From IMG/VR virus record IMGVR_UViG_3300032246_000397, positions 186 to 64,185 of that record: a stretch of 64,000 nt of DNA. One strand, given 5' to 3'. A program made the translations under genes and the position numbers. This stretch comes from a virus (Duplodnaviria > Caudoviricetes). The notes beneath the pieces are model-generated. The model saw nothing but the letters and a program-made list of their open reading frames with translations. It was not told where the DNA came from and did no database searches. Positions 19,075 to 36,737 of the stretch are shown one piece after another (the first letter of the stretch is position 1; every line of letters starts with the position of its first letter).

Positions 19075-19280
19075 GCGGTACGCCAACACCGTACCCCTAG
19101 GTAGCCTTCTTTAGTTGCAACGTAAGACTTTACGCGTTTGCCAGCGCGCTTTGCCCCACAGTCTATAGAATAGATTAACTCCGCAGGGCGGAGAGTAGGG
19201 ATAAAAAAACTTTCCCCAACCTCCATGCCTTCAAACGGTAGCAGCCATTCTGGTTCAATGATCTGCGTGGGATTCAACAT
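19071..19280 (-). CDS. Small hypothetical protein (possible DNA-binding)
   Basis: PFEGMEVGESFFIP...GVRCWR motif; last gene of the - arm. Confidence 0.6.
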   Translation of the reverse strand: MLNPTQIIEPEWLLPFEGMEVGESFFIPTLRPAELIYSIDCGAKRAGKRVKSYVATKEGYLGVRCWRTA

Positions 19281-22140
19281 TTATAAGTTCCATGTTATTT
19301 TTAAACAGATAAACGTTTGTAGCTTTAGTTGTAGTGGTCGCTTTCCACCCAGTCTCTAAATGCTTCTTAGCAGCTTTATCTAGCATCTCTCCAGATTCCA
19401 TCATGTGTTTCTCAAATTCTCGTGGAGAAATCTTCTTCTTAAGCAAGTACTCTTTCAACGCTTCTTTAGATATACGGGTTGCTTCATCAGTTGCCACCCT
19501 TGCTACTAACTTACCGCGCGGTTCATCAATAACTTTGTTTTCTTTAATGCGTAGAATGTTACCCATATTCTCATAGATAAAGTCATTCAATATTGCAGAG
19601 TAATCCGTAGAATTTAGCTTGACCACATTAAGCTTGATATTGTTAAGCTCTTTAATAATCTTAGCGTAGATACGCTCCAAATCGTAGTTAACAATTCCAG
19701 CATCGTTAGCAATCTCGCCAGCTGTAAACACTGCCGCTACAAAGTTCTGATGGAAACGATAGGCTGAGTCACCACCTGTATCAGTTAAATATCTATTAAT
19801 CCAATAGTCAATACGCTTCTTAATATGGATATCACCAAGCGTCAACACCTCAGTAATAAACATAGGTCCTGAGTGCCCGTAGTTATGCTTAAACGCATCA
19901 AAAATATGAACGCCTAGCTTTGCGCCATCAGCTCCTTTTAAATCGTCTGGCTGCTCAATTAAGAACTCAATCAAACGCGCTACCTCTCCGTCAGGGCTTC
20001 CTTTAAGAATCTCAAACTTGTTGTAAACAGATTCGTTTGTGGTTAACACAGCTATTAAAGACGCTGACATTTCAGACACACGCTCAGCATTGACCGACGC
20101 TTGCATCCTAATCTTAGCTTTGCCATTTGATACGTTATGTACTAACTGAGATAACGGTTTAGGGTCTTTGTTACCAATCTCGTCAACTCCAAACATAAGG
20201 TTCTTAAGACCCAGCATACGACCAGTCAAACCATTGTCTGTACTTTCAAACACGCTAAGCGCATCAGGGTCTCCAAAGGTACTAATGCCAGCATACATCG
20301 CTCCAGTCTTAGCACAACCCGAACGACCTAGTAGAGATATGACAACGCCGGGTGTAGACATGTAGGGCATGAGCGTTGAACCAAATCCAGCCAAGCAAGC
20401 CATAGCATGTAACTCAAATCCCGGACGGTTTAATTCATTTGCCGATTCTTGCCAACGCTCAAACGTACCTATCTTATTAAAGTGTTTTGCAACTCCACGG
20501 ATATACGGAGATACAGGCGCCTCTACTGTTTCTTTCTCGTAAGTTATCTCGCTTTCACCAATAACAAAACTTCTTTTATCCCATTCTGCGGTATTCTTTG
20601 CCGCTGTCCAACCTAACTGCATGCGCATCTGTTGCGCCTTGTGTACTAAAATCATGTATTTACTCCATGTGACTATATATTCTTGAATGTGATTGATATG
20701 TTTAGGGCTATAAATAACCTGATGGAATGAGAGCGTCTTTTTAAATTCTTCTAATGCATAGACAGATTTCATTGGAAGTAAGAACTCCTTTAGTCCATCA
20801 TTAGGAAGAATTAGATTCATTGTTAAACACTCGCCGTCCAGCTGACTAAACAATCTGCGTGTTGGATATAAGATATGTGAGAGTATCTCAATCGGGTCTT
20901 CGTACTTTACGTTGCCTTTCTTGTCTGTTTTTGGGGGTGGATAAAAATATATACCGCCATTCTCTCCGCGGGTATATGGCTTTAAAAAATCTGGGAATTT
21001 TGGAATTTTTTGGGTATTCGGTTCTTTCCGAATTGGTTCCTCTTCATTGGCTTTTTCAAAGAGGCTGGAGATAGCGTCTGGGATTGGTTCAATAATTGGG
21101 GTGTCTTCTGTCGCTTCCTTAAGAATCTTTCCCAAAACAATAGGAGATTTAATTTTTCCACGGTGTTTGCATCCTTTGCATTTTTCTGGATAGTTATCTT
21201 CAAACCATTCGCATGTGCGAGGGGCTGGAAAACGGCTGGCTTTTTCTTCTGTATCTTTGTGGCTATAGCCGGGGTGGTCTTCTGAAATAAGATGTATAGC
21301 AGTAGCGCCGTCAGTACAAAACTTAGCAACTGATAACCCAGCAAACCATAACGGTTCTTCTAGGGTAGCGGACTCTACTAAAATACGTTCTATCTGAGCG
21401 CAACCATCACCAGCCAATGAGCGTTCCGCAATCTTTTGGAATCTCCACTCAAAGTTATCTAGCTTTTTCATGGCTAGGGTATCTTCGTCTAACCCCCTAC
21501 GAACATTAGCAAACGGGTCTTTAACCTGTTCAGTTTCTATACCATCTAAAAATGATTTAAACTCATCCCAGTCATAGACGCTAATCTCTTCACCAATAAT
21601 AGACGTAGGTTCTGGTGGGTCAAACTTATAGTTAAGCGTGTCAGGGCAACGCATAATGCGAGCCGCATCTGCCATCACCGCCGCATCGGCAGCTATTCTT
21701 TCTAACGCATATACCTTGAACTTCTGCGCATAGGGAAGGTACTCTTCAATTGGTATATCCCTATCCATAATCCAATAGGCATGCATGCCACCGCCACTAT
21801 CAATGCACACAGGGCTAGGCATACCTGTTTCACCAAGGAACTTCCATAGGGCTGTTTGCGCCTCGCCTTTGTCACCATATGCCTTACCTTCGCCAACGTC
21901 TAAGTCAATAAAAAATGTACGGTAAAACAGGCAGTTTTCCGCCTTCCTACTAAATCCATCAAAGCTACCTAATGCAACAAATGTGTTAAGTTTTTGTCCT
22001 TTTGTTTTTTCAATTAGTTTAAATACATCTTCAAGTGTTTCTGCAAAACGGTTCGTTGTTTTCTTTGTTGTTTGTTCTATACCGCTTACACAATAAACAC
22101 CCTGCGATGGCAATGCTTTCTCATAAAATTGTTTTAACAT
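19255..22140 (-). CDS. Primase-helicase fusion (AEP/RepB-like primase, Cys cluster, DUF927-like helicase)
   Basis: FFIDLD, SGGGMHAYW, RIMRCP; CEWF..C.GC; Walker A GRSGCAKT; Walker B GVDE. Confidence 0.8.
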   Translation of the reverse strand: MLKQFYEKALPSQGVYCVSGIEQTTKKTTNRFAETLEDVFKLIEKTKGQKLNTFVALGSFDGFSRKAENCLFYRTFFIDLDVGEGKAYGDKGEAQTALWKFLGETGMPSPVCIDSGGGMHAYWIMDRDIPIEEYLPYAQKFKVYALERIAADAAVMADAARIMRCPDTLNYKFDPPEPTSIIGEEISVYDWDEFKSFLDGIETEQVKDPFANVRRGLDEDTLAMKKLDNFEWRFQKIAERSLAGDGCAQIERILVESATLEEPLWFAGLSVAKFCTDGATAIHLISEDHPGYSHKDTEEKASRFPAPRTCEWFEDNYPEKCKGCKHRGKIKSPIVLGKILKEATEDTPIIEPIPDAISSLFEKANEEEPIRKEPNTQKIPKFPDFLKPYTRGENGGIYFYPPPKTDKKGNVKYEDPIEILSHILYPTRRLFSQLDGECLTMNLILPNDGLKEFLLPMKSVYALEEFKKTLSFHQVIYSPKHINHIQEYIVTWSKYMILVHKAQQMRMQLGWTAAKNTAEWDKRSFVIGESEITYEKETVEAPVSPYIRGVAKHFNKIGTFERWQESANELNRPGFELHAMACLAGFGSTLMPYMSTPGVVISLLGRSGCAKTGAMYAGISTFGDPDALSVFESTDNGLTGRMLGLKNLMFGVDEIGNKDPKPLSQLVHNVSNGKAKIRMQASVNAERVSEMSASLIAVLTTNESVYNKFEILKGSPDGEVARLIEFLIEQPDDLKGADGAKLGVHIFDAFKHNYGHSGPMFITEVLTLGDIHIKKRIDYWINRYLTDTGGDSAYRFHQNFVAAVFTAGEIANDAGIVNYDLERIYAKIIKELNNIKLNVVKLNSTDYSAILNDFIYENMGNILRIKENKVIDEPRGKLVARVATDEATRISKEALKEYLLKKKISPREFEKHMMESGEMLDKAAKKHLETGWKATTTTKATNVYLFKNNMELINVESHADH

Positions 22141-22154
22141 ATGCGCAGAGTCTA

Positions 22155-22203
22155 AAAAGCCGAGATATCCTCGGCTCGGTTAATAGGCTAGGGTTTCCCC
22201 TAG
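22155..22203 (-). terminator. Two hairpins, the second terminator-like, upstream of primase-helicase
   Basis: - strand CTAGGG-GAAA-CCCTAG, then AGCCGAG-GATAT-CTCGGCT-TTTT. Confidence 0.6.
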
Positions 22204-22206
22204 GTT

Positions 22207-22518
22207 CTAAATATTTTCGCCAATCATATCCTCTAAGTAAGTCTTAGCTTGGGCAGTGTTTTTAACTGGTAAAATACCTTTAGCAGTATCACTTTCCACT
22301 AAGTCTGTAAATACTTCGACAAGTTGTTGGTTTTTAAAACGAATTGGTTTGCCACGGAACCAGCTATGAAGTGTCATCCGAGTTACTTTAAGCGCAACAG
22401 CTACGTATTTGGCAGGTAAATTTGCTCCTATACATGCTTTAGCTAAAGCAACTCCGGGATAATTAGGGTTTAACTTATTAACTTGAATGATTAATTCTTT
22501 GCTGTACGTCCGTGGCAT
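22207..22518 (-). CDS. HTH DNA-binding protein
   Basis: VAVALKVTRMTLHSWFRG helix-turn-helix. Confidence 0.65.
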   Translation of the reverse strand: MPRTYSKELIIQVNKLNPNYPGVALAKACIGANLPAKYVAVALKVTRMTLHSWFRGKPIRFKNQQLVEVFTDLVESDTAKGILPVKNTAQAKTYLEDMIGENI

Positions 22519-22527
22519 TTTATTTCC

Positions 22528-23367
22528 TTACTTCTTTGTAGACCATTTTTTAACAACGTCTGATACATCAGCCGCCTTCTCACCAACAGGGGCTTTTGAC
22601 TCCCGTTTGACTGGCTCTGCTACTTCTTCTGTATCTGTACCTGTACTATCAGACTGGAACACGTTGAGTTTAATAGCTTGTTCTGCCGCAGCACTCTTAG
22701 CTTGACGAGCAATAATTTCCAAATCGCCATCTGGCACTGCCCCAACCGGAGCAAACAATACCTTTGGTGTAGGAGATTTTGTATCGAAAGCCATCTTAGT
22801 TACGATACGGCCCGCGGATACATTGTGTGACGCTAAGTGTTGAATGTACGGACGGAAAGGCCAACGACCACTATCTTCCTTACCAAAAGCAGACGTAGCT
22901 GGAAGGACTAATTGCATTACATCACCTGACGGGTCATTCGGTAGAACAACTGCGGTGCGCCATGATAGTTTGCATTTTGTGCCACGACCATCATCGCCAG
23001 ATCCTTTTGCGCTATTAGGGCATCCTGCACAGCTAGATGCTATTGGGGTTTTTACTTCTGGGTCAGGCGTCTCTGAATCAGACGACCAGCAAGCTGGGCT
23101 TACTTTTTCGCCTTCTCTATAACCCCTGTCGTAAAACATACGGGAGGCTTTGTGCGCCATCTTAACAAAGATTACATTCATGTAGCGGTCTTCAATAGCA
23201 CCAATCTCTTTGCCGCCAGCATACTTACGGAATACGCTACCCTTAATAGATAAACGTTTGTTGCCTTGACGGTTGCCACCAGCTACGGCTAAGGTGTCTT
23301 CATCTAACCCGCCAACATTTGCCAATGCGCCAATAGCACTTAAATTAACTAACTCTGTACTCATCAC
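22528..23367 (-). CDS. Conserved replication protein with 4 Cys (putative SSB/annealing protein)
   Basis: Position in the replication module; CWS..C..CP...CK motif; low-complexity C-terminus. Confidence 0.45.
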   Translation of the reverse strand: MMSTELVNLSAIGALANVGGLDEDTLAVAGGNRQGNKRLSIKGSVFRKYAGGKEIGAIEDRYMNVIFVKMAHKASRMFYDRGYREGEKVSPACWSSDSETPDPEVKTPIASSCAGCPNSAKGSGDDGRGTKCKLSWRTAVVLPNDPSGDVMQLVLPATSAFGKEDSGRWPFRPYIQHLASHNVSAGRIVTKMAFDTKSPTPKVLFAPVGAVPDGDLEIIARQAKSAAAEQAIKLNVFQSDSTGTDTEEVAEPVKRESKAPVGEKAADVSDVVKKWSTKK

Positions 23368-23388
23368 TACTCCTTTAACTTAATTAAA

Positions 23389-23802
23389 CTAATTTGAGGT
23401 TGGTTTACGGACTACGATTGTAAACTCTCTCATAACATTCACACCGGGCGGCAGACCATCATCCGCATGCTCAGCAATGAATTCTTTAAAATTGCCCTGA
23501 TGAAGACGCGCCTCATACAACTCTACAGCATCGTGCTCACGGACAAACTCATCAAACGCTGCTCTGTCCGACAAGGTAAATCTTTCATTCAACTTCTTAA
23601 TAACCGTACCTGCATTTGTTTTAATACTTGTTGCGTTTGACTCATTACAAATTCCTAACATCTGCTGGGATAGTATGGCAAGTTCACTTTCAATTTCCCT
23701 TGCTTTTTCTTTCCACTCAGATTCCAGTCTATCACGCTCACTTCTTATTGTCAAGTATATTTTTACTAATCCATCTAAATTTGTGTCTATAACTTCACTC
23801 AT
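23389..23802 (-). CDS. Hypothetical replication-module protein
   Basis: RBS; coiled coil; LPPGV motif. Confidence 0.6.
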   Translation of the reverse strand: MSEVIDTNLDGLVKIYLTIRSERDRLESEWKEKAREIESELAILSQQMLGICNESNATSIKTNAGTVIKKLNERFTLSDRAAFDEFVREHDAVELYEARLHQGNFKEFIAEHADDGLPPGVNVMREFTIVVRKPTSN

Positions 23803-25363
23803 CTTTTATTCCTAACTCTTGTTTGTACAAATCAACCAGCTTTTCGTGGCTAGCAACTTTCCCTCGTAACATCTCATACATCTTGCGTTCTACTTCTGAA
23901 CCTTGTAGATGCACAACGGTCATGCTATTTACTTGCCCGACACGATCTATACGGGCTATGCATTGTAGATATGTTTCCACACTCATGACTGGAGACCAAA
24001 ATACTACTGTATTGGCGGCAGTTAGAGTCACACCATGCGATGCAGCTTGTGGCTGAATAATAAGAACTCGTGGAAATTCTGAATTTTGAAAACGGTTAAT
24101 TAAGTCGCCGCGTTCTTTAGCTCCTACATCTCCGCTAATGATTTCATTACTCACTCCTTGTTCAGTTAAATGTTTAGAAACTAAAGTAATCGTATGGCGA
24201 TAAGGAACAAATACAATAACCTTATGTTCCGTTTCATCCAGTACTTCCATTAGGGCATTTAATCGTGGTGATACATCAAACTCCACAACTTCGCGGGTGT
24301 CAGTGTAGACCGCCCCTCCCGAAATCTGTAATAGCTTTGTTAATTTTGCCGCCGCATTGACCGCACTAATCTTTTCCCCTGCCGCTTCAATAAGCATCTG
24401 ACTTTTAATGCCAGCGTAGTATCTGTTGACTTGAGGTGTTAGTGGTATCTCACGGGTCTGATACATAACGCTAGGTAAATCCAAACACTGAGCCTTCTCA
24501 AAGCGTATTGCAGGTTGCAACGCGTTAAACACATCATGCCTTGACGTAGGCTTGGGCACATATTTAAACCGTGATACTTGGTGCATGACTTTATCACGCC
24601 AAGCCGTAAAGAACTTAGGGACATTTCCGGGCGAGACCAAACGCGCCAAGCCATATGCATCAAGGGGAGACTGGGAAGCAGGAGTTCCAGTAAGCATCCA
24701 AAGTTTAGTAGAAGGTTTCAATATTTTTGATAGTGTTTTAAATCTTTTAGTCGTAGCTGTTTTATACGCGTTTGCTTCGTCAACCACAATTAGGTCAAAC
24801 CCTAACTTATTTATTTCATCCGCGACAATACTTACACCATCGTAATTTATGATAACAAACTCATACACTCCGTTAATTATTTTTTTGCGTTTCTCCGCAT
24901 CGCCGTAGGCTACCGCTACGCTTCTGTGCATAGATGTCTTAAAGATATCAGCTTGCCATGCCGAGTACATAATAGATAGGGGGCAAATGATTAGAACGCG
25001 TTTTATTAAACCCTGAGACATTAAATAGTCGGCAGCCCATATAACTGAGGAAGTCTTGCCTGTGCCAGCCTCGTTAAAGCAGAAAGCCCTATCTTGTAGG
25101 GATAAAAACGCAGCCGTGGTTTCTTGATGTTTGAAAGGTGTGTACATTCCGGGCCACTTGTAATCGCGTTGTATCGGTGAAGGAACTTTATCACCACACA
25201 CTTTTACTAGTCTTTGCATTTCTTCAATGCCCCAGTAGACCAATACATCAGCCTCTTTGCCGTTGTCTTCTAAGACTTGGCTTCTTTCTAAATAATCCGT
25301 TATCAAATTTACTTTTGACGATTCGATTTTAAATCGCACCGCCTGATCTTCAACTATATTCAC
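23795..25363 (-). CDS. SNF2-family SF2 helicase
   Basis: EAGTGKT, VDEA, LTGTP, QCIARIDRVGQ motifs. Confidence 0.9.
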   Translation of the reverse strand: MNIVEDQAVRFKIESSKVNLITDYLERSQVLEDNGKEADVLVYWGIEEMQRLVKVCGDKVPSPIQRDYKWPGMYTPFKHQETTAAFLSLQDRAFCFNEAGTGKTSSVIWAADYLMSQGLIKRVLIICPLSIMYSAWQADIFKTSMHRSVAVAYGDAEKRKKIINGVYEFVIINYDGVSIVADEINKLGFDLIVVDEANAYKTATTKRFKTLSKILKPSTKLWMLTGTPASQSPLDAYGLARLVSPGNVPKFFTAWRDKVMHQVSRFKYVPKPTSRHDVFNALQPAIRFEKAQCLDLPSVMYQTREIPLTPQVNRYYAGIKSQMLIEAAGEKISAVNAAAKLTKLLQISGGAVYTDTREVVEFDVSPRLNALMEVLDETEHKVIVFVPYRHTITLVSKHLTEQGVSNEIISGDVGAKERGDLINRFQNSEFPRVLIIQPQAASHGVTLTAANTVVFWSPVMSVETYLQCIARIDRVGQVNSMTVVHLQGSEVERKMYEMLRGKVASHEKLVDLYKQELGIKDE

Positions 25364-25384
25364 AACTGTCCTTTAACTAAATAT

Positions 25385-25556
25385 TAACGTAACCCCTTAC
25401 GGGGGTTAGTCGGTCGAGCCTATCATGCCAAGGAGAAGCGCTAGTTATATGAGCTAGCCTTCACAAACACCGCCCTACTGATACGGTTTAGGATCTTCAC
25501 CCAGAGGAAAAGTATAAGCCTCTTGTTACCCACTCATACCTAACGGTAACGTACTA
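25385..25556 (-). ncRNA. Candidate structured RNA between HNH-like gene and helicase
   Basis: Multiple stems plus a possible loop-loop pairing in a ~200-nt ORF-free gap. Confidence 0.5.
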
Positions 25557-25563
25557 CCACCCA

Positions 25564-25875
25564 CTATTTCTTGCGTTCTTTTTTACTTGTTTCTGATACT
25601 AAATTACCTTTTGAATCTCGCTTAAAGCTACGGTTTTTAGCGGCGCTTTGGATACGCAATCCATCTTTATTACTACCGCCTTTGTCAAGGGCTTTAACGT
25701 GTGCAACATCTTTTCCTTCTCTTGCATCTGCTTTACCATTTCCGTTGCCGTCGGGTAATTTTTTATCAAGCGACCGCCTAGCTCTTTGACGCTCCATACG
25801 ACGTTCATGTTCACCACGGCTTTTCTCCTGTTGGTATTCTTTTTCATAAGGTCTTGGTTTGTTAACGTAAGGCAT
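25564..25875 (-). CDS. Small HNH-like protein
   Basis: KDVAHVKALDKGGSN....AKNRS pattern; basic N-terminus. Confidence 0.6.
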   Translation of the reverse strand: MPYVNKPRPYEKEYQQEKSRGEHERRMERQRARRSLDKKLPDGNGNGKADAREGKDVAHVKALDKGGSNKDGLRIQSAAKNRSFKRDSKGNLVSETSKKERKK

Positions 25876-25877
25876 GA

Positions 25878-26114
25878 TTAATCCTTTTTCTTTTTCGCCA
25901 CAGGCTTTTTGGTTGCTGGCTTTCTTGTTTTAGTAGAGACAACATTAGTTCTGCTAGCAATTTGTTCGGCAGTGGCGTATTCATTAATGGCTTCTTTAAG
26001 CATACTGATAAGCCCCCACTGTACAAGCGTTTCGAGTCCGTCTTTATCGAATCGAACAATAGCGTCAGCTGAACCATCTTTGTTTTCCTTAGTAATTTTT
26101 ACTGAAATATTCAT
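25878..26114 (-). CDS. Hypothetical protein
   Basis: Translationally coupled ORF; ENKDGSA motif. Confidence 0.6.
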   Translation of the reverse strand: MNISVKITKENKDGSADAIVRFDKDGLETLVQWGLISMLKEAINEYATAEQIASRTNVVSTKTRKPATKKPVAKKKKD

Positions 26115-26770
26115 TATCTTTCCTTGTGAAACTCACATGTTTTAACGGGGCACCATCCACATAAAGGGGTTGGGTTTGGATTCCATATATTATTTTCGTA
26201 TGAAATGTTTAATCTTTCAAGGTCTGTACTAAAATAATTCCATAGCTTAGGAATCTGATCTCTTGTATATTCCTCTTCCATAAAACTTTCATGCATCACA
26301 AACAACAATCCAGCCTTAATAATCTTTACTTTGGGGAAGTGGGCAAACGCCATCAGCGCCATCAATTTTAACTGTTTTGGGTCAGGATAGCGATTAGACC
26401 CAGTCTTATAATCTACAATAAAAGCATGGTCGTTGTCCACAATAAGTAAGTCTACAATACCCCGCACCCAGCGATTATCGTCTGTAAACCCGCATGGTTG
26501 CTTATCTCTATCTAATGCCATCTCATACTCAGGGTATTTAGTTCCCGGAATTGCCACTAAAGAATCTAATACGGGTTGGAAACGTAAGTAGTTCTTAGCT
26601 AAGGGTTTACCCTCAGCCACATAATCTTCGCATGCTTTATGCACAACTGTACCGTAGAGCATCTGCTCGGTAGCTTTCTTTTCAAAACGTTTTAATACCT
26701 TTAACTCATGATACTGACGAGGGCAGTTAACGTATTCTTTAAGGGCGGAGAATGACCATGTAAAATTCAT
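26114..26770 (-). CDS. PD-(D/E)XK exonuclease (Cas4/RecB-like, Fe-S cysteines)
   Basis: N-terminal CP, GIVDLL..IVDYKTG, QL..MA, C-terminal LCGWCPVKTC. Confidence 0.85.
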   Translation of the reverse strand: MNFTWSFSALKEYVNCPRQYHELKVLKRFEKKATEQMLYGTVVHKACEDYVAEGKPLAKNYLRFQPVLDSLVAIPGTKYPEYEMALDRDKQPCGFTDDNRWVRGIVDLLIVDNDHAFIVDYKTGSNRYPDPKQLKLMALMAFAHFPKVKIIKAGLLFVMHESFMEEEYTRDQIPKLWNYFSTDLERLNISYENNIWNPNPTPLCGWCPVKTCEFHKER

Positions 26771-26779
26771 ATTTACCTA

Positions 26780-27031
26780 TTATACCAAATCATCTTTATT
26801 AAAACCTTTTTCAAACAAGGCTCGTCGAATTTTTTTGAACGCACTTTCTTCTATATTTCGCACAGTTTGACGACTAACACCCAATGCTTTGGCTATTTCT
26901 TCTTGCGTCATGTTACCGTTATCGGTTTCAGAAATATCTACCATACCAGCAAACGGAATCGGTTCTAAGCCTAGTTCACGTTCTAGTTCTATCATCGCCT
27001 TAATCCTATCTTCGGTAGTAAAAGTTGTCAT
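26780..27031 (-). CDS. Sigma70 region-4-like HTH protein
   Basis: MTQEEIAKALGVSRQTVRNIEESAFKKIR. Confidence 0.75.
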   Translation of the reverse strand: MTTFTTEDRIKAMIELERELGLEPIPFAGMVDISETDNGNMTQEEIAKALGVSRQTVRNIEESAFKKIRRALFEKGFNKDDLV

Positions 27032-27198
27032 TTCTCTTGTACCTTTCCAGTTACTAATTCATCAATTAGCCTTAACTCAGTTTTCAACGCTTCTATTTCA
27101 GCTTGTTGCTGTCGTAGCATGGTGGCTATTTCTTCTCTAGTTACCAGCTTGTACCAGCTATCTACTTCTAATAGGTCAGCTAGTTCATTTGCGTTCAT
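27028..27198 (-). CDS. 56-aa hypothetical protein (not in ORF track)
   Basis: MNANELAD...ATMLRQQQAEIEALK; ATGA coupling at both ends. Confidence 0.6.
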   Translation of the reverse strand: MNANELADLLEVDSWYKLVTREEIATMLRQQQAEIEALKTELRLIDELVTGKVQEK

Positions 27199-27458
27199 TT
27201 CTCTTGTGCCTTTCTAATTATTTCTCTGCAAAATTTATAATCAAGTTTTGTTAAACAGTCATATCCTTTAAAGTCATAGACTTCGCACCATAAATCAGTT
27301 ATTTCTTTGTCTGTTAGGGCATTGGCTAAATCTTTTTTTGGATGGGTGTAGAGTGGAGTTTCAGTCATATCTTCCCAAAGCATTTTCTCTTTAACAAAAG
27401 ATAACTTCGATGCTCCATTAGATTTCTCATACATCCACGCTACTGGTTCATTGTTCAT
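27195..27458 (-). CDS. Hypothetical protein
   Basis: EPVAW...PLYTHP...LTDKEI motifs common in phage ORFs. Confidence 0.6.
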   Translation of the reverse strand: MNNEPVAWMYEKSNGASKLSFVKEKMLWEDMTETPLYTHPKKDLANALTDKEITDLWCEVYDFKGYDCLTKLDYKFCREIIRKAQEK

Positions 27459-29335
27459 TTCCACTCTTTCATATCTCCGTAATTGCGACCATACTGCGCT
27501 TCACATGCTACTGGTAAACCCTTAGCCCAATCAGGTGGGCTGGACATAACCTCGACAATCCATGCACAAGCCTCATCTACCTCATCATCGGGAACTACGC
27601 ACACCGCCGCATCGTGAACTGTCAGCACGGGGCGATAACGCTCAGTAAGTTTAATCATTTGTTCGCCCACGACAATCCGTGCAAGAGCTTGAACTACGTT
27701 CTCTACCACTGATCCGCCCCATAGAGACACGGGGCCCTTTCGTGACTTATATTGGTATCCGCTAGTAGTTTCATCTGTATTGAGTTGAAGTTCTGGGTAA
27801 CGTATGTATAAACCGTTTGGTAACTGTATACCATCGCTATACACTTTTACACATTTATTTTTACCATAATAAAAAGGTTTTTGTTCGGGTTGCCAATCAG
27901 CCATAATCTTTAATGCCTTGTCGCCTTCTCTCCATAGTTTTACAATCATATCATTAGTATCTCTGTACAATTTTACTATTTCGTCACACTTCTCTTTAGT
28001 AAGGTCAGCGCCTGGCGGCGATGTTTTCAGTGTGTGCTGTAACTTTAATGCGCCAGTACCATATCCGAGACCGAGTATGCAGGTTTTACCCACGAACCTT
28101 TCAACAGAGTCTTTTTTGGTGATGGGTCTATCATATATTTTCGACGCAAAGATGGAGTAAACATCATCTCCCAATTGGAACTCTTCAACCAAGTCGGTCT
28201 GACCCGAAAGCCAAGCGAGAACTCTTGCCTCAATCTGAGACGAGTCGCAATTGATAACCGTATATCCCTCTGGGGCAACCACCGCTTGCTTAAGAGTTTT
28301 TTTCTTAGCGTCACGGGACGGGAGATTTTGGAAGTTGACCTTGTCCGACCCCGCCCAACGACCCGTGTGTGCCCCGTAGTATTTAAGTGGGATGGGCAAT
28401 CTTCCTCTATTACGAGACCCAACGTCAATGAATCTTTCAATTCTACTTTCCTCAATAGTTGATTTTGTACCCAAACGCACCGCAGCGAGTTGTTGAATAA
28501 ATGGGTTTTCGTGTTCAGTCAACGCTATGAACCCTACATCGTTTTTTGCCAAAGCGTAGGTTTGCTTGCCAGTAGTCTTACTTTCTTTCATAGGTACTTC
28601 AACACCAAATTCTTCCAGCACCGTAGCGAATTGTTTATTACTAGCTAGTTTTTTGCGAACCGCCTCTTCGTTTTCGCATTGTAATTTTTCTTTTAATGTC
28701 CCTAATAACTGTAATTTCTCGTGTTTTAGCTCTTCTAACCGGTCATTTAGTAGGGCATCATCAACCTCTAAAATTGGATTAATAAACATCCGCAAAGTTA
28801 AATCAATCAGTTGTAACTCTTCTTGTGGAAACGCGCTCGACAATACTTGGAAAAGCTTATAAGTTAGTTCTACATCGTTTTTGCAATATTCGCCGTACTG
28901 GGCAAGCTCGCTATTTGTGAAGCCAGTTATATTCTTTCCTTTAGCCTCAACGACTTCCGTACCCTTCGTGCCTAGTTTGTAACGCTCAGATAGGTATGCT
29001 AAAGAGCCACCCACGTCTACCCCATTAGTCGCTCTACCCATGCAAAGTGTATCGAGATATAACTTGGGCTTGATACCAAACCGCCACGCTAGGATAGCCC
29101 CGTCAAACATAGTGTTATGGCAAAGTAAAGCGGAATCATTCCACGGTAGGGTGGAAAGGTATTTTTGAGTTTCAAGGTGTGAGCCAGAAAACCATTGCGT
29201 GATACCGTCGTCGATCTTAACACCAACACCGATGACTTCAAATCTTCTATCCCTGATGTATTCCTCAGTTGTTAGCTTGGATAGCGAAAAGTCTTGAGCA
29301 TAGTAGGTCTCAAAATCTAGTGTAATTAGTTGCAC
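27455..29335 (-). CDS. polA: DNA polymerase family A with 3'-5' exonuclease (Leu762 type)
   Basis: LDFET / HNTMFD / YCKND exonuclease motifs; HTGRW, NFQN, DSSQIEAR, KTCILGLGYG, VHD. Confidence 0.92.
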   Translation of the reverse strand: MQLITLDFETYYAQDFSLSKLTTEEYIRDRRFEVIGVGVKIDDGITQWFSGSHLETQKYLSTLPWNDSALLCHNTMFDGAILAWRFGIKPKLYLDTLCMGRATNGVDVGGSLAYLSERYKLGTKGTEVVEAKGKNITGFTNSELAQYGEYCKNDVELTYKLFQVLSSAFPQEELQLIDLTLRMFINPILEVDDALLNDRLEELKHEKLQLLGTLKEKLQCENEEAVRKKLASNKQFATVLEEFGVEVPMKESKTTGKQTYALAKNDVGFIALTEHENPFIQQLAAVRLGTKSTIEESRIERFIDVGSRNRGRLPIPLKYYGAHTGRWAGSDKVNFQNLPSRDAKKKTLKQAVVAPEGYTVINCDSSQIEARVLAWLSGQTDLVEEFQLGDDVYSIFASKIYDRPITKKDSVERFVGKTCILGLGYGTGALKLQHTLKTSPPGADLTKEKCDEIVKLYRDTNDMIVKLWREGDKALKIMADWQPEQKPFYYGKNKCVKVYSDGIQLPNGLYIRYPELQLNTDETTSGYQYKSRKGPVSLWGGSVVENVVQALARIVVGEQMIKLTERYRPVLTVHDAAVCVVPDDEVDEACAWIVEVMSSPPDWAKGLPVACEAQYGRNYGDMKEWK

Positions 29336-29367
29336 TTAAATCCTTAAATAACAAATTCAATAGATAC

Positions 29368-29402
29368 AAAAATAGGGAGCAAAGCCTAAGCCTAACTCCC
29401 TA
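29368..29402 (-). terminator. Intrinsic terminator upstream of polA
   Basis: - strand TAGGGAG...CTCCCTA-TTTTTG. Confidence 0.6.
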
Positions 29403-29406
29403 AAGG

Positions 29407-29703
29407 TTACTGTTTTTCTAGTATAGCAATCTCACGCTTGAGATACCACTCAGCTTTCTTTAAGTCTTCTAAGTTTTTTCCCTTATAGTCTGCCCTAGAA
29501 ATATATTTAACAACGTTGCCTAGGTTATACCCTAAGTGTTTAGCCTCAATAAAATCAATCGTCTCAATGCCACCAGCTTTGTAATGCGCTGGGCTGTTGA
29601 CGTTGTCCGTTACTACTTCCTTAGGTGGTCTTCCACGCTTACGTGGAACGCTATTTAATAGTCTTTGTCCATACCTAGTTTCTGCAAATTTAAGTTTAGC
29701 CAT
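29407..29703 (-). CDS. DUF3310 (T7 gp1.7-like) protein with AT-hook
   Basis: RKRGRPPK; DNVNSPAHY..GGIETID; GNVVKYISRA..K..EDLKKA.WYL. Confidence 0.8.
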   Translation of the reverse strand: MAKLKFAETRYGQRLLNSVPRKRGRPPKEVVTDNVNSPAHYKAGGIETIDFIEAKHLGYNLGNVVKYISRADYKGKNLEDLKKAEWYLKREIAILEKQ

Positions 29704-29914
29704 TTTTACTTCTCCTTTTAGTTGAACTACGTTTGACTGCCAAAATACCTTCTTCGGTTTCGTGCTTGCGAGCCTCTATCATTGCGTCTGCTATTTCATA
29801 TGACCGTCTTGCAATGCAATCTTCGGGCATAAGCTCGGGATGCAAACCACCTCTAGCAATGATTCCGTTTAATGCAAACATCGCAAAACAATCTCTTAGG
29901 TCTTGTTCATTCAT
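29696..29914 (-). CDS. Hypothetical protein
   Basis: LRDCFA...YEIADAMIEAR motif common in phages. Confidence 0.65.
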   Translation of the reverse strand: MNEQDLRDCFAMFALNGIIARGGLHPELMPEDCIARRSYEIADAMIEARKHETEEGILAVKRSSTKRRSKNG

Positions 29915-30119
29915 CTTTTATCTCACGATTCTTTTTAAACAAATAGTCATTACGATACTCACTAGGCGGAATAAACCCAAACTTTTTAAAGGTCTTCATT
30001 ACATCTGCGCCAGCAGTCCAAACAAATTTGGAATTACGATCAATAGCCATATCTTGTTTATGTTCCTGTTTTATTTCATTGTCTATTGCTCTTAACTTAC
30101 GAAAGGTTCTTATACTCAT
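29907..30119 (-). CDS. Hypothetical protein
   Basis: Coupled ORF. Confidence 0.55.
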   Translation of the reverse strand: MSIRTFRKLRAIDNEIKQEHKQDMAIDRNSKFVWTAGADVMKTFKKFGFIPPSEYRNDYLFKKNREIKDE

Positions 30120-30406
30120 ATGAAATATAACTCCATGTATTGATTAACAGTATGCTCATTCACTACAAAAGCAGTACCCCCACTATCCTCTATCCTGTTG
30201 AGATTGTCTTGTTGCAATGCAGTAACCTGTCCGTTGTTGGCTTTACATTCTATCCCATAGAACTTTCCTTTATGACATACTAAAAAATCAGGCGCACCGC
30301 TACTGCCGTAACCGCCTGTGGCTGGCATGACATAATAGATTTCTTTCTCTTTGAGTATCTTCTTAACCTTGTCTTTAACTTTTCCTTCGGGGGTTTGTGC
30401 CATCAC
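30116..30406 (-). CDS. VRR-NUC nuclease / Holliday junction resolvase-like
   Basis: TPEGKVK, GAPDF, IECKA, TALQ. Confidence 0.8.
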   Translation of the reverse strand: MMAQTPEGKVKDKVKKILKEKEIYYVMPATGGYGSSGAPDFLVCHKGKFYGIECKANNGQVTALQQDNLNRIEDSGGTAFVVNEHTVNQYMELYFI

Positions 30407-30738
30407 TCTTCTCCTCTAAGTTTCATTAACGATGGGTACGGCAACACTATGACAAAATAACTATCGCTTGTTTGCCACCCAATTTCTATTAGTTCTTCAT
30501 CTTTCAATGTAGTCATCAACATCAGGCTAGTCAACTCATGGTCTTGGAGTATCTGTTGTGGTCTTGACAAGATCATAGCCATCTTGGTTTTAATTTCATC
30601 GGGCAACGTCTGCTCATCAAACTCACGAGTAAAATTATCGCCAACATATATCGTGTATTTATTTCCTACCTTACGCAACGGCACACGATACAAGTCCCAA
30701 TTATATTGATGCACTATCGGGCTTAGTTTTTCTAGCAT
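30403..30738 (-). CDS. Hypothetical protein
   Basis: Coupled ORF; likely start ATG 30738. Confidence 0.55.
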   Translation of the reverse strand: MLEKLSPIVHQYNWDLYRVPLRKVGNKYTIYVGDNFTREFDEQTLPDEIKTKMAMILSRPQQILQDHELTSLMLMTTLKDEELIEIGWQTSDSYFVIVLPYPSLMKLRGEE

Positions 30739-31655
30739 GGGAACATCGCCCAAGTTAAGTTATATTCATCCGTACCACGGACACACGCAAGTATAACGTC
30801 GAGATCAGGCAAGTAGTCATTCTCTTGTGGAAGGTAACTACCATATAGTTTCTTGCCTTCATATTTGTTTTGGCTGAACACTTTTAACATCAACATAATT
30901 GGCTGAATATCCTCATACTCTGATAGGTCTTTAATTCGTTTAAAAGGTTTAACAACGTCGAACTTTCTGTCTTTATCATTCTTCTTCAAAACCCCTACAA
31001 CCAAGTGATTAAAGGAGTCTGCGCCTATTGCATAAAATCCATTGTCAAAAAAGCGAGCAATATCTTTATCTCTTACGTCTTTTATTTTATCTATTTCGTC
31101 GTACTTGTCAAGTATTTCTTTACATTTATTTAATGTTATTTGGTGAGCATTTTCTCCTCTAAAAACTTGTCGCAATAAAGAATGAATTTCATCGCTTTCT
31201 AGTGAGACACGCTTACTAATATTTCCGTGATGACTTGAAAGTCCTTGCACCGCAGTTCTAAAACAATCCTCATGGCGCATTTTTATCATTCCATCAAGGG
31301 GTGGAACGACCTCATTGCGTTTCAAAGTCGCCATCAATGTTGATAGTTTTTTACTGTGAAGTGTTTCTCTGTCAGCCGAGCCAGATCCGCGCTCTTTACG
31401 ATAGTATGGTGAACGATAGTTATAAATGATGTTCTCACCATCCTTTTCAAGAAAAATCTTGGCAATGACAAACGCACCGCTAGACTCAGTAAGTAAAAAC
31501 TGTTCGGCGATGCCAGCCAAAGGTCTAGTATCAACACTAAGAACTTTTAGTCCAAACTTAAAATTCAATTCCTGTATGAATCTTTTGCATGGAGACTTTT
31601 CTATGTATGATGTTAGTTCTTCGGTCTCAAAACCTTCTACGATATATTTATTCAT
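30732..31655 (-). CDS. Hypothetical protein (307 aa)
   Basis: Long ORF with GGAG RBS. Confidence 0.7.
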   Translation of the reverse strand: MNKYIVEGFETEELTSYIEKSPCKRFIQELNFKFGLKVLSVDTRPLAGIAEQFLLTESSGAFVIAKIFLEKDGENIIYNYRSPYYRKERGSGSADRETLHSKKLSTLMATLKRNEVVPPLDGMIKMRHEDCFRTAVQGLSSHHGNISKRVSLESDEIHSLLRQVFRGENAHQITLNKCKEILDKYDEIDKIKDVRDKDIARFFDNGFYAIGADSFNHLVVGVLKKNDKDRKFDVVKPFKRIKDLSEYEDIQPIMLMLKVFSQNKYEGKKLYGSYLPQENDYLPDLDVILACVRGTDEYNLTWAMFPC

Positions 31656-31665
31656 TTACTTCTCC

Positions 31666-32685
31666 TTAGTATTGTTCGACTTCTTTATCACCGACATAAA
31701 TCTCTACACCCCACTCTGATGGTGGATAATACGTATTGGGTGTATGTTCTACAAGTTTCATTACCGATGGGTTAGCTTTATACAACTCTTTGTTTAGCTT
31801 GCGCTTGATGTTACAGAACAAGTCCGCTAGTTCTAGTTCTCCTTGTCCATAATAAGTAGCTTGTTGGGGATTGAGGGTGGTTCTTATCTTAGCGTACAAA
31901 TGGCTTAGGTCATGCGCTAACGCATAGGCTACACAACTATCAAGTGGCGCTTCGTTTAAATTCTTATCAGCAAACTCGATAAGATTTAACTTTGCCGTTT
32001 GATTCAAGTACCAATCTTCTTTAAAGTCAGCCCCGCATTTAAAACCTACTTCTATTGCCACTTCCACAAAGCCCTTCCAGTCCATAGACTTCAACATCAC
32101 CTCGTTAATCGTATAAAAGTCTTGGTATCGCTTAAGAAACTCTTTACCTTGCTTACGGCTAACACGCTTGCCGATAATTCTATACTCGCTACCTTTTGCT
32201 GGTAACATGGTGTCGCACTCGATACGCATGCCTTTAAAGATTGGGTGGAACACGTCAGAACTTCTATATATCATTCCACCATGACGTGAACTCCTAAAGA
32301 AGTAACCTTGAGTCCAGCTACTCATGATCTGATTATCTCCTTGCCCATAGTTCTTAGCAGTAAACTCAAAAGTATTATCAGAGCGAACTATGCCCAACTC
32401 ATTTGGTATGCTAAGGTAACTGCAATACATTGTTGTCGGGTCAGTATCCCATTGGCGATGGTGTATGCTTGATGGATTTGCTTTGTACTCTGCCTCGGTA
32501 TGATACCGTTCAAGATAAGTGTAACCATATCTAACAACATAAACCTTTTCGCCGTTACGTTCCTCGACAACAAAGTCTTTTCTGTTATGAGTTCTTTTAC
32601 CGATAGGATACCGATTAGTAGTACCCCTATACGGCTTTTGAGTTTCAGTAATTCCAGTAAGTCTATTCCAAGATAGTCCAATCAT
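31666..32685 (-). CDS. Hypothetical protein (339 aa)
   Basis: Long ORF with GGAG RBS. Confidence 0.7.
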   Translation of the reverse strand: MIGLSWNRLTGITETQKPYRGTTNRYPIGKRTHNRKDFVVEERNGEKVYVVRYGYTYLERYHTEAEYKANPSSIHHRQWDTDPTTMYCSYLSIPNELGIVRSDNTFEFTAKNYGQGDNQIMSSWTQGYFFRSSRHGGMIYRSSDVFHPIFKGMRIECDTMLPAKGSEYRIIGKRVSRKQGKEFLKRYQDFYTINEVMLKSMDWKGFVEVAIEVGFKCGADFKEDWYLNQTAKLNLIEFADKNLNEAPLDSCVAYALAHDLSHLYAKIRTTLNPQQATYYGQGELELADLFCNIKRKLNKELYKANPSVMKLVEHTPNTYYPPSEWGVEIYVGDKEVEQY

Positions 32686-32912
32686 TCTGCTTCTCCTTTG
32701 TTAAGTTCGTCTAAATCATTTAATACATTTCGCCACATATTCATACCTAAGTCGTCGCCATGCTTTTCAAACTCCAAGAATCTTTCTAACGCATACAAAT
32801 GCGCTTTATCCCCATGAGACTCTATGGTTGCTCTCGTTAAGTCTTGATTAAAGTAAGTGCTATGCCTATCGGTGTGATACCACTCGTCATCTGCTTCATC
32901 ATATTTCGGCAT
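32682..32912 (-). CDS. Hypothetical acidic protein
   Basis: Coupled ORF. Confidence 0.55.
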   Translation of the reverse strand: MPKYDEADDEWYHTDRHSTYFNQDLTRATIESHGDKAHLYALERFLEFEKHGDDLGMNMWRNVLNDLDELNKGEAE

Positions 32913-32914
32913 GA

Positions 32915-34228: not shown

Positions 34229-34230
34229 GA

Positions 34231-34422
34231 TTACTCCTTGATATCAATGATTTCTACATGGTCTTCGGTAATAACAATCTTAGATGTTCCGTCGACCACA
34301 CGCTTTAGTTTATAGATAGTAAGACCTATAAATTCCTGATACTGATTACGTTTAAAAAAGTACAAGACAGTCATAGTCACCGCCCATACAATTAAAAATG
34401 TTTCGCTATTACTTATTTCCAT
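34231..34422 (-). CDS. Small membrane protein
   Basis: RBS AAGGAG; N-terminal TM. Confidence 0.55.
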   Translation of the reverse strand: MEISNSETFLIVWAVTMTVLYFFKRNQYQEFIGLTIYKLKRVVDGTSKIVITEDHVEIIDIKE

Positions 34423-34515
34423 TTACTTCTCCTTTATTAAACAGATTAAAAAACCAACCATGATCCCCAATGCAAAAGCTATTAGAGTCCAAAGATATAG
34501 TGCGATTGCGTACAT
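34423..34515 (-). CDS. 30-aa TM micropeptide (not in ORF track)
   Basis: MYAIALYLWTLIAFALGIMVGFLICLIKEK; stop abuts the next ATG. Confidence 0.45.
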   Translation of the reverse strand: MYAIALYLWTLIAFALGIMVGFLICLIKEK

Positions 34516-34543
34516 AGTTATCCACCCTTCAATGGAAAGTTAA

Positions 34544-35617: not shown

Positions 35618-35642
35618 TTGCTTCTCCTTGTTTAGATTGTCA

Positions 35643-36557: not shown

Positions 36558-36576
36558 ATACTTCTCCTTGGTTGAT

Positions 36577-36684
36577 TTACTTCAAAAATAAAAGATGCTC
36601 GAAAAATCCAAAATCCACGACGACGTGGATAGCTAAATAAAACAATGCGACTATTACTAAACACTTACCAAAAAAGTTATCCAT
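36577..36684 (-). CDS. 35-aa TM peptide
   Basis: GGAGG RBS before ATG 36684; directly behind promoter at 36709-36737. Confidence 0.55.
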   Translation of the reverse strand: MDNFFGKCLVIVALFYLAIHVVVDFGFFEHLLFLK

Positions 36685-36708
36685 GATGTTCCTTCCTCCA
36701 GTTTCATA

Positions 36709-36737
36709 AGTATACCACAACTTTACATATAAATCAA
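36709..36737 (-). promoter_or_regulatory. Sigma70 promoter, class B (TTGATT-N17-TATACT, extended -10)
   Basis: Near-identical to 37704-37732; shares GTAAAGTTGTGGTATACT. Confidence 0.75.

Follow-up and report, generated by a model that had tools for sequence, protein, structure and literature searches.

On the - strand of the window (the whole 64,000-nt stretch of viral DNA analysed here), a 200-nt gap (25364-25563) separates a 103-aa ORF, p103 (25564-25875), from a gene for an SNF2-family helicase with a GTG start (23795-25363; Pfam SNF2-rel_dom, 2.3e-18, and Helicase_C, 1.8e-16), whose Shine-Dalgarno sequence AAGGA is read directly at 25369-25373. The gap carries an RNA element (25390-25555) consisting of a pseudoknotted core and a terminal hairpin, delimited with covariance model R1 and a hairpin survey and co-oriented with both flanking genes. 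R1 matched 25407-25555 with 81 bits (E 1.3e-22), and this is the single copy in the window and in the genome. The helicase start lies 27 nt past the terminal hairpin. The copy sits mid-operon, with no promoter-like site directly upstream of the RNA, and the phage genome does not encode an integrase.

p103 is a small basic protein of phrog_4590 (function unknown) with at least 7,995 relatives, and its alignment shows an invariant Arg-rich stretch (R..ERQ.ARR) plus H59, N69 and N81, with a weak HNH-like motif at the C-terminus. The first-pass annotation had called the gene HNH-like. For p103 itself, Pfam gave nothing at E<=1, and a profile search of the PDB found no HNH, returning only a weak match to ribosomal L24 (E 0.13); the AF2 model was of low confidence (mean pLDDT 56) and too poor for a structure search. 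Distant positional homologues do better: the protein at L206:1200-1490 scored 23.5 bits against Pfam HNH (cut-off 21.4), while that at L199:1539-1829, 47% identical to p103, fell below threshold. HNH is found in 12-30% of members of the nearest named Atlas clusters. From these sequence comparisons, the identification of p103 as an HNH-like protein is weakly supported.

The RNA family is not in the Rfam 15 catalogue, in agreement with the novelty proposed by the first-pass annotation, whose statement that the element is not a tRNA also stands. There were no matches at gathering threshold in the whole window, and between 25200 and 25750 relaxing the search to E<=10 gave only a 12-nt match to CRISPR-DR36 (12.9 bits; threshold 38) and none to ribozyme families or HEARO. 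Five homologous loci gave no matches at E<=1, and 14 diverse loci yielded two sub-threshold hits only, both elsewhere in L205. The families covered include riboswitches, ribozymes, HEARO, ssNA-helicase and Polynucleobacter-1 (RF01718). A full-text literature search did not find a description of the motif, which is not proof of its being unpublished.

Covariation was evaluated mainly on 86 unique sequences, with shuffled and slid alignments as controls. Paired cells amounted to 95.6%, versus 82.2% in shuffles, and 20 of 24 pairs showed changes on both sides (25-53% in slid controls). G-U pairs are frequent, one pseudoknot pair being G-U in 84 of 91 sequences, which fixes the RNA strand, as the other strand would have C.A mismatches. 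By conservation and covariation among homologues, the gap thus encodes, on the - strand as proposed, a conserved pseudoknotted RNA of 90-160 nt with three to five predicted helices, arranged in the order P1 and pseudoknot, optional P2, P3-P4-P5 with a CU-rich element, CCGA tail and hairpin.

P1, the GTTACC/GGTAAC stem of the first-pass annotation, pairs GUUACC (25545-25550) with GGUAAC (25525-25530); both partners vary at each of the six pairs, and pairing is kept in 90.7% of cells. It closes a 14-nt loop (25531-25544; consensus GUAAGGCAUGAGUG) of invariant or near-invariant columns. Within this loop, 25532-25533 and 25535-25540, with A25534 bulged, form the 5′ strand of the pseudoknot, and its 3′ strand, ACCGUAUC, lies at 25480-25487. 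The eight pairs have 99.9% of cells paired and compensatory changes in four (e.g. A-U 72/G-C 13 at one pair; U-A 62/C-G 7/A-U 5 at another), and RNAalifold recovered the helix unaided. P2 (25491-25523), corresponding to the predicted AGAGG/CCTCT stem, consists of one or more variable hairpins; the segment is missing in 3 of 90 sequences and, of the 87 that carry it, 85 form 3 bp or more. Minimal forms of the RNA occur without P2. In P3, likewise recognised earlier as TCAGTAGGGC/GCTCGACCGA, 25472-25478 pairs with 25413-25419, with changes on both sides at 7/7 pairs and 96.8% of cells paired, the window copy having one A.G mismatch. P4 joins GUG (25468-25470) to CAU (25425-25427; 3/3 pairs change on both sides, 90.8% paired). 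P5 (25435-25462) is another variable hairpin, the former GAAG-GCTAG/CTAGC-GCTTC stem, reaching 3 bp or more in 70 of 90 sequences. Motif enrichment in P4 interiors revealed a CU-rich, anti-Shine-Dalgarno-like element (CUUCUCCUU, 25430-25438): CTCC or TCCT was found in 71 of 77 interiors (28.6 ± 4.0 in shuffles) and TCCTT or CTCCT in 53 (12.6 ± 3.2). This element is complementary to the Shine-Dalgarno sequence and is found in stand-alone RNA copies too. The core ends in a conserved tail after P3, CCGAC (25409-25413; columns at least 90% conserved). The pseudoknot and the variable-sequence hairpins are kept across at least 134 unique sequences.

Five of the seven pairings proposed in the first-pass annotation, the four stems above and the terminal hairpin, hold. 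Closure by ACGT/ACGT was not borne out, the mean longest flank stem being 4.60 versus 4.56 ± 0.09 with permuted partners, nor was a kissing loop between TATGAG and CTCATA (4.35 versus 4.33 ± 0.03; 6 bp reached by only 11.7% of sequences); the actual partner of the P1 loop is 25480-25487. The helices detected by an all-against-all column scan were limited to P1, the pseudoknot, P3, P4 and the terminal hairpin, with no convincing extra or alternative helix. The folding energy of the single sequence was no better than chance (-50 versus -56.5 ± 4.5 kcal/mol, z +1.44), 189 of 200 shuffles folding at least as well and neither strand being significant, so that the description 'highly structured' stands by covariation and not by energy.

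The core is followed by a hairpin (25390-25408) with a 7-bp stem (TAACCCC/GGGGTTA) and a CGUAA loop. As the first-pass annotation had recognised, this is a true feature: it is present in 82 of 90 sequences, 77 with the CGUAA loop, its stem covaries, and it also occurs where p103 is missing. The accompanying statement that the RNA has no U-tail is half right. A simple scan classed 25408-25390 as terminator-like (5 T in 8), third among such - strand sites in 18800-38700; the resemblance to a terminator is weak, and just 13 of the 82 hairpins have 6 or more U among the 10 nt that follow, indicating that most phage copies are poor terminators. More widely, 123 of 134 unique cores have a hairpin beginning no more than ~27 nt behind them (57 terminator-like by a simple rule), and bacterial copies of the RNA have homologous hairpins followed by clear U-runs. 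The hairpin after the tail is a predicted intrinsic terminator in the bacterial copies and in many phage copies. Downstream hairpins of different subfamilies are unrelated in sequence and do not overlap P3. In L199, L206 and L179 the order is RNA, terminator, Shine-Dalgarno sequence and helicase, with only 38-65 nt from RNA end to helicase start, judged too short for a separate promoter, so that the helicase would need read-through.

Of 80 related viral contigs, 75 carry the element at this location, with the p103 gene on one side and the SNF2 helicase on the other, as do 49 of 50 pattern hits and deeply divergent phages with a minimal RNA (L199, L206, L214, L216, L179). Divergent forms were found in other phages, in lake, marine and high-G+C samples. 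In L205 a p103-like gene and the RNA occur together again, in a different order. In temperate-type contexts (L124, L195) a cro/repressor-like gene comes before the RNA and replication or nuclease genes come after it; three subclades have near-consensus sigma-70 promoters immediately ahead of the motif. The downstream gene encodes the SNF2 helicase in the majority and elsewhere a helicase IV-like, HRDC, YqaJ, T5orf172 or SIMPL protein; some loci have no downstream gene, or a convergent one. The RNA is a stand-alone gene with a convergent downstream gene in L132, L135, L170 and L217, and in L198, L236 and L221 the nearest same-strand downstream ORF is 113-443 nt away. The RNA and p103 also occur apart: five relatives keep p103 and the helicase and are missing the RNA core, and a p103 homologue was absent from the search of four RNA-bearing bacterial genomes (G001-G004) and one virus record (L124). 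Partnership with the HNH-like protein, as suggested by the first-pass annotation, is consequently not required.

Terminator-ended genes for divergent forms of the RNA were also identified in genomes of Polynucleobacter, OM43 and Marinoscillum, at the edges of variable regions; Polynucleobacter kasalickyi VK13 and OM43 HTCC2181 are cultured carriers. Polynucleobacter-type loci consist of a divergent upstream gene, the RNA, a strong terminator and a convergent downstream gene; the Polynucleobacter copy lies between an esterase gene and a DUF6538 (integrase-fragment) gene. OM43-type loci share the RNA and terminator and differ between contigs in the downstream DNA and genes, with a helicase IV-like gene following the terminator in OM43 HTCC2181. 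When R1 was run with strict filters on 61 Polynucleobacter and 41 Methylophilaceae genomes, the only true hit in each set was the starting genome; under such filters, non-detection does not equal absence. Second hits from these searches (L150, L151) were translation starts mimicking the loop, and three genome-pattern hits located within ORFs (L142, L134, L139) were regarded as chance matches. The motif was not found beside homologues of the OM43 helicase in eight other genomes, and the OM43/Marinoscillum-subtype pattern had 0 hits in viral contigs. Against cultured phages, blastn of the gap gave no match, and three divergent copies gave only chance matches (terminator tails, unrelated genes). 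The closest helicase loci of cultured phages (Rollin, RHph_TM3_14A, Effie, Xp15) have no R1 match even with filters off, the helicase being packed tightly against the upstream gene.

With its multi-helix fold and conserved junctions the RNA resembles riboswitches and orphan RNAs such as raiA and HRC-28-1. The latter is described as having six stems, the last an intrinsic terminator, as occurring mostly in Polynucleobacter and as lying between a PRK05408 gene and rpiA (PMC8632094). Here, the single Polynucleobacter copy, from 1 of 61 genomes, has different neighbours. Compared by description, not alignment, identity with HRC-28-1 is unlikely.

In a lake metatranscriptome, a 187-nt contig of depth 4.6 is identical to 25368-25554, and the same RNA run has zero depth over 24900-25350 and 25556-26006. 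This is a single contig, contigs cannot show RNA ends and DNA may be present in the library; a contig from a DNA run also ends at 25554. X20, a second RNA run, covered p103 genes from relatives and left the gap bare, which is uninformative either way, and X13 leaves the gap flanks uncovered; holes in contig data prove nothing.

The reading that we place first, tentatively and at less than even probability, is that the RNA may be a cis-acting transcription-control module (antitermination or attenuation). It would act within the phage early/replication operon, where the nascent RNA, once folded, would determine if RNA polymerase reads through the hairpin or terminator immediately downstream; it would do so unaided, in the manner of HK022 put, or together with the Arg-rich p103 encoded upstream, as in N/nut or conAn. 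The outcome would be control of the timing and amount of transcription of the helicase-primase block. Pointing to cis control are the fixed position between p103 and the SNF2 helicase, including in divergent minimal forms, the strong covariation, the hairpin behind most cores, the need for read-through in L199, L206 and L179, the cro-like upstream genes in L124 and L195 and the sigma-70 promoters in three subclades, as well as the basic, Arg-rich nature of p103 and the parallel with conAn, where a protein gene precedes an antiterminating RNA. The 'cis-regulator of the helicase' suggested by the first-pass annotation thus survives as the leading reading, limited by the occurrence of the RNA with other downstream genes or alone.

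Lambda N is a basic, Arg-rich protein of ~100 aa that binds boxB, a hairpin with a pentaloop. Similarly, Nun of HK022 is described as a basic protein of ~100 aa that carries an Arg-rich motif and binds a hairpin in nascent RNA (PMC4124055). p103 (103 aa, basic, with an invariant Arg-rich stretch) and the hairpin with its conserved 5-nt loop are alike in these respects, but there is no sequence match to either protein and p103 has the HNH-like C-terminal motif. Put-type RNA binds the beta' zinc-binding domain of RNA polymerase, suppressing pausing and termination. The put RNA of HK022 is described as measuring ~70 nt, folding into two stem-loops, with a short triplex in stem I, and, placed behind early promoters and before terminators, acting on the polymerase making it (PMC9378689). 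Like putL and putR, the RNA here is a folded RNA within what is probably a phage early operon; its location after cro-like genes in L124 and L195 recalls that of nutR/putR, and the hairpin or terminator after 123 of 134 cores recalls put ahead of terminators. Compared by described architecture, it differs from put in its length and in its loop-to-downstream pseudoknot. Antitermination of the conAn type needs both a protein and an RNA element for processive read-through. In the account of conAn, from conjugative plasmids, a protein gene (ConAn1) is followed by a large RNA (conAn2) and polymerase passes terminators in a long operon (PMC8191782). The order of p103 gene, RNA directly after and then hairpin is similar, the adjacency being found in distant families as well; unlike conAn of Gram-positive plasmids, several RNA-bearing genomes do not have p103 and the element of the window is mid-operon. 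Observations that run against cis control include the small number of U-rich hairpin tails, the stand-alone copies, the variable OM43 downstream genes and the distant ORFs in L198, L236 and L221, together with the five relatives without the core, the five RNA-bearing genomes or records in which p103 was not found, the OM43-helicase homologues without the motif, the missing promoter-like site in the window and the fold unlike put RNA.

The nearest rival, rated only slightly lower, is a stable trans-acting small RNA, which in bacteria would have its own promoter and terminator and in phages would be cut from, or terminated within, the operon transcript; its exposed CU-rich element might pair with ribosome-binding sites of targets, or its fold might sequester a protein. 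The Polynucleobacter-type loci, with a strong terminator and a convergent downstream gene, fit this reading, as do conservation of the OM43-type RNA and terminator but not the downstream DNA, enrichment of the CU-rich element, in stand-alone copies too, and the relatives that manage without the core. The 187-nt contig with zero depth in flanking stretches is also consistent with a small RNA, tempered by its being one contig of low depth, by the end shared with a DNA-run contig and by the possible presence of DNA in the library. However, phage copies are at one fixed place and co-oriented, with too little room for a helicase promoter behind the terminator, and base-pairing small RNAs seldom have a pseudoknotted core of several helices with invariant bases at the junctions. 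The copy in the window does not fit a stand-alone gene: no promoter-like site precedes it, and the helicase begins 27 nt past its hairpin. The same complex fold, with its invariant loop and junction bases, would suit a riboswitch, in which the core would bind a small molecule or ion (e.g. nucleotide-related) and switch termination or access to the helicase ribosome-binding site. The 5′ leader position with a promoter directly upstream in three subclades, the aptamer-terminator-gene layout before the helicase IV-like gene of OM43 HTCC2181 and complementarity of the CU-rich element to the Shine-Dalgarno sequence are compatible with this. A riboswitch is nonetheless unlikely: the column scan revealed no covarying alternative helix joining core and hairpin and, among column pairs, no mutually exclusive pairing of the kind expected for an expression platform, the hairpins behind the core show no sequence relationship from one subfamily to another and leave P3 free, the downstream genes are replication, recombination or variable-island genes and not a metabolic set, and stand-alone copies face convergent genes.

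Adjacency of the p103 gene and RNA in main and distant families, their reunion in another order in L205, the invariant Arg-rich stretch and the HNH leads would also fit an RNA subunit of a p103 ribonucleoprotein, in which the RNA would serve a miniature nuclease as guide, scaffold or activator at the onset of replication. A structured RNA beside a gene with an HNH-like motif recalls HEARO and the omega RNAs of IscB and TnpB. Unlike those systems, the window encodes no RuvC/HNH effector of several hundred residues, the neighbours being p103 and the SNF2 helicase, and there is no HEARO match; the RNA and p103 each occur alone, and the variable parts of the RNA are hairpins, with no guide-like variable segment flanked by conserved scaffold, making this very unlikely. 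A broader version, something of a long shot, is that RNA and p103 would form a tiny machine marking or nicking DNA, or reprogramming polymerase, at the entry to the replication genes, while bacterial islands would retain only the RNA, to serve such phage proteins as a decoy or docking point. A self-cleaving ribozyme or RNA-processing signal could split the p103 and helicase parts of the transcript, in keeping with the compact pseudoknotted fold, invariant loop bases, intercistronic position and discrete RNA-library contig, but appears most improbable given no Rfam ribozyme match even at E<=10, stand-alone copies whose own terminators make cleavage unnecessary, and the lack of any sign of a cleavage site. 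A DNA-level element (replication origin or attachment site), or chance inverted repeats, is strongly disfavoured: the location of bacterial copies at variable-region edges, one beside the DUF6538 gene, and the unremarkable folding energy are outweighed by compensatory changes with many G-U pairs, which would be C.A mismatches on the other strand, retention of the pseudoknot and variable-sequence hairpins over the whole set of unique sequences, and the lack of an integrase in the phage.

A pseudoknotted, strongly covarying RNA class with well over 100 distinct representatives is a rare find outside the catalogue, and the phages that carry this one include a very abundant freshwater group. If control by read-through is true, the RNA would add a new class to the handful of antitermination or attenuation RNAs that, to our knowledge, are known, and would offer a handle on replication timing in uncultured phages. 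If it is instead a trans-acting RNA common to phage and host, it would represent a host-type regulatory RNA carried by phage. Its bacterial carriers include streamlined plankton bacteria (OM43, Polynucleobacter), and two of the carriers are cultured strains.

The virus record is complete (64,185 bp, direct terminal repeats) and looks like that of a lytic tailed phage, with terminase, capsid protein, SU10-type adaptors and a 2,326-aa polyvalent protein, and no integrase gene in the window. The RNA element (25390–25555, − strand) lies in a 200-nt gap (25364–25563) within a long block of − strand replication genes, ordered family-A polymerase, PD-(D/E)XK nuclease, 78-aa orf, p103 (103-aa orf, 25564–25875), gap, SNF2 helicase (23795–25363) and DUF927 primase-helicase. 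ARAGORN finds neither tRNA nor tmRNA, in agreement with the first-pass annotation. The strongest terminator-like site on the replication-side strand (38326–38355, −; 12-bp stem, then a T-run) is upstream of the replication block, and the polyvalent protein (12094–19074, +) has LPD38, a large polyvalent protein domain, as its sole Pfam match.

With the helicase as query, 594 related stretches were identified in viral contigs, and in all of the best 80 of these a p103 homologue is followed by a gap and then the helicase. The gap measures 129–215 nt in 75 of the 80 and only 46–75 nt in five (L035, L038, L043, L050 and L080), where the RNA core is missing; L035, L038 and L050 nevertheless retain the terminal hairpin with CGUAA loop (25390–25408 in the window), and in L043 there is a GAAA-loop hairpin plus U-run. 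Window included, the 81 gaps represent 64 distinct sequences with an evident shared architecture, and a pattern built from two conserved blocks found 50 further viral stretches, 49 in the p103-helicase context. In three subclades (L066, L067, L071–L075, L077–L079) a near-consensus sigma-70 promoter (TTGACA, 16–17 nt, TATACT) lies directly 5′ of the motif; L071–L079 have no CGUAA hairpin, the motif leading straight into the helicase ribosome-binding site.

Applied unaided to 60 whole gaps, RNAalifold predicted 19 pairs, 14 with compensatory change, forming P3, the terminal hairpin and a helix between the P1 loop and a downstream segment (25480–25487), i.e. a pseudoknot. Twenty-four pairs in P1, pseudoknot, P3 and P4 were then scored in three alignments, whose sequences share kinship, so that the pairing figures are not probabilities. 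Among 86 unique viral cores (A2), 95.6% of cells are paired (shuffled 82.2 ± 0.4%, 0/500 reaching the real value; slid controls 24.6–52.8%), 20/24 pairs change on both sides and double changes occupy 322 cells versus 72.5 in shuffles. The model-based alignment (A3; 91 sequences including four bacterial copies and one false positive) gave 95.9% versus 80.9%, again with 20/24. For 56 distinct metagenome matches (A4), where only P1, P3 and P4 are independent, since the search pattern fixed the pseudoknot columns, 93.9% of cells are paired (shuffled 72.9%), and the 17/24 pairs with double changes do not differ significantly from shuffles (15.9; 166/500 reach 17). Stronger than these figures, as an argument for the structure, are the slid controls and the variety of pair types within single columns; the frequency of G-U pairs assigns the RNA to the strand of the genes. 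P2 and P5 are unrelated in sequence and length between homologues, a hairpin of ≥3 bp being present in 85/87 and 70/90 sequences, respectively; P2 is absent in three. A CU-rich, anti-Shine-Dalgarno-like element (25430–25438) is strongly enriched in the P4 interior. Directly 3′ of the core is a hairpin in 82/90 sequences, with a covarying stem and a CGUAA loop in 77; of the 134 unique cores whose downstream sequence is long enough, 123 have some hairpin behind them, and in 57 it is terminator-like.

In the window sequence alone, folding is no better than in shuffles: the − strand gap has an energy of −50 kcal/mol (shuffles −56.5 ± 4.5; z +1.44), 189/200 shuffles fold as well or better, and z is −0.71 on the + strand. 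The case for real structure thus comes from the relatives; the ‘highly structured RNA’ of the first-pass annotation is borne out by compensatory change between homologous intergenic regions and not by folding energy, and the ACGT/ACGT closure and TATGAG/CTCATA kissing loop it described are confined to this one sequence. Taken together, the comparisons show that the gap encodes a pseudoknotted RNA that is conserved and has a hairpin or terminator behind it.

The motif is absent from Rfam 15: nothing in the window reaches gathering thresholds, E ≤ 10 around the gap yields only a 12-nt chance match, and no family matches the bacterial, divergent phage or metagenome copies examined. No description was found by full-text literature search or in passages of PMC8632094, PMC11109978, PMC5737381 and PMC2864571. 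HRC-28-1 of Polynucleobacter (PMC8632094) is described as having six stems, the last a terminator, wording that would also fit the motif (compared by description); however, its gene context differs, and HRC-28-1 is common in Polynucleobacter, whereas the motif was found in 1/61 genomes.

When one genome of each prokaryote species was scanned by pattern, 14 stretches were returned, four of which the covariance model R1 scores as clear members: Marinoscillum (68.6 bits), Methylophilales HTCC2181 (59.6), a beta-proteobacterial MAG (39.9) and Polynucleobacter kasalickyi (39.9), with one copy per genome. Three other matches, inside orfs, were attributed to chance, and strict filters found no further true copies in 61 Polynucleobacter and 41 Methylophilaceae genomes. 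The P1 loop resembles a ribosome-binding site plus start codon, although the AUG covaries away in homologues; two model matches at ~22 bits (L150, 1501–1637; L151, 1501–1552) were rejected as true translation starts (GGAG-UAAGGCAUGAGUG) mimicking this loop. Metagenomes yielded at least 80 loci, 62 of the 80 listed matching the model at E ≤ 0.001; among the best 46 of these 62, both p103 and helicase are present in 31, one of the two in three and neither in 12. Most lower-scoring matches represent a minimal form that lacks P2 but retains P1, pseudoknot and P3.

The RNA mostly stands at the entry to the helicase or other phage replication/recombination genes. Distant phages have a 96–97-aa protein, minimal RNA, terminator, ribosome-binding site and SNF2 helicase, in that order, and in several the RNA ends only 38–65 nt before the helicase start, terminator included. 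In other phage-like contigs it follows a cro/repressor-like gene and precedes replication-initiation or nuclease genes (L124, L195), follows a Toprim-DnaB primase-helicase (L236), SNF2 gene (L221) or large terminase (L198), or lies between RusA and p103-like genes (L205). In L205, ~700 nt from the motif, 737–812 (−) has sub-threshold Rfam matches to Betaproteobacteria toxic small RNA (29.2 bits versus 50) and SorX (25.9 versus 46.6).

p103 has no match in Pfam, PADLOC or PDB, a poor AF2 model and no named member among its homologues, of which there are at least 7,995. Its alignment shows an invariant Arg-rich stretch (residues ~26–34), resembling RNA-binding motifs of N/Nun-type proteins, invariant H59, N69 and N81, and no cysteines. 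The earlier label ‘HNH-like’ has no direct Pfam backing; it is weakly supported by partly HNH Atlas neighbours and by the protein in the p103 position of L206, one of the distant phages (Pfam HNH, 23.5 bits versus cut-off 21.4). The corresponding protein of L199, another of these phages, shares 47% identity with p103; the search of the four bacterial carriers and the L124 record found no homologue, an empty answer that weighs little.

We tentatively favor, at less than even confidence, a module that acts in cis by antitermination or attenuation, perhaps with the help of p103. The 38–65 nt before the helicase were judged insufficient to hold a separate promoter, in which case polymerase would reach the helicase gene only by reading through the terminator behind the RNA; this, and a position in temperate-type contexts like that of nut sites or HK022 put, are the grounds for preferring it. 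Ranked close behind, and rather doubtful, is a stable RNA acting in trans, consistent with the bacterial copies that stand alone as genes, with the enrichment of the CU-rich element and with an RNA-only contig in one lake metatranscriptome. This 187-nt contig is identical to 25368–25554 (depth 4.6), with zero cover over 24900–25350 and 25556–26006 in the same run. A DNA-run contig also ends at 25554, where the assembly may have broken; DNA contigs continue across 25368. The RNA-only contig hints weakly that RNA from the gap is longer-lived than that of its flanks, and proves neither transcription nor the RNA ends. A riboswitch is improbable, since no covarying alternative helix was found and the downstream genes form no metabolic set; a partner of a p103 nuclease, a ribozyme or an element acting as DNA is less likely still.

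In OM43-type contigs (L133/L152, L186, L172, L222, L201), VWA and sortase genes, RNA and its terminator are conserved, and shared sequence ends at this terminator with complete divergence beyond: what follows depends on the contig and may be a helicase IV-like gene with an SRA-HNH gene as neighbour, a gene for an HRDC protein, a small Sel1-like orf or a gene in convergent orientation. The RNA gene here is the edge of a hypervariable island, encoding in HTCC2181 the SRA-HNH protein as well as a helicase IV-like protein of 955 aa that carries two topoisomerase zinc ribbons; the motif was not found at homologues of this helicase gene in eight other genomes. Polynucleobacter-type loci have a divergent upstream gene, a strong terminator and, adjoining it, a convergent downstream orf (L135/L153, 7162–7467; L132, L170, L217). 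This orf, of 101–105 aa, is an integrase N-terminal fragment whose sole match is DUF6538, and it resembles what an integrated element might have left behind.
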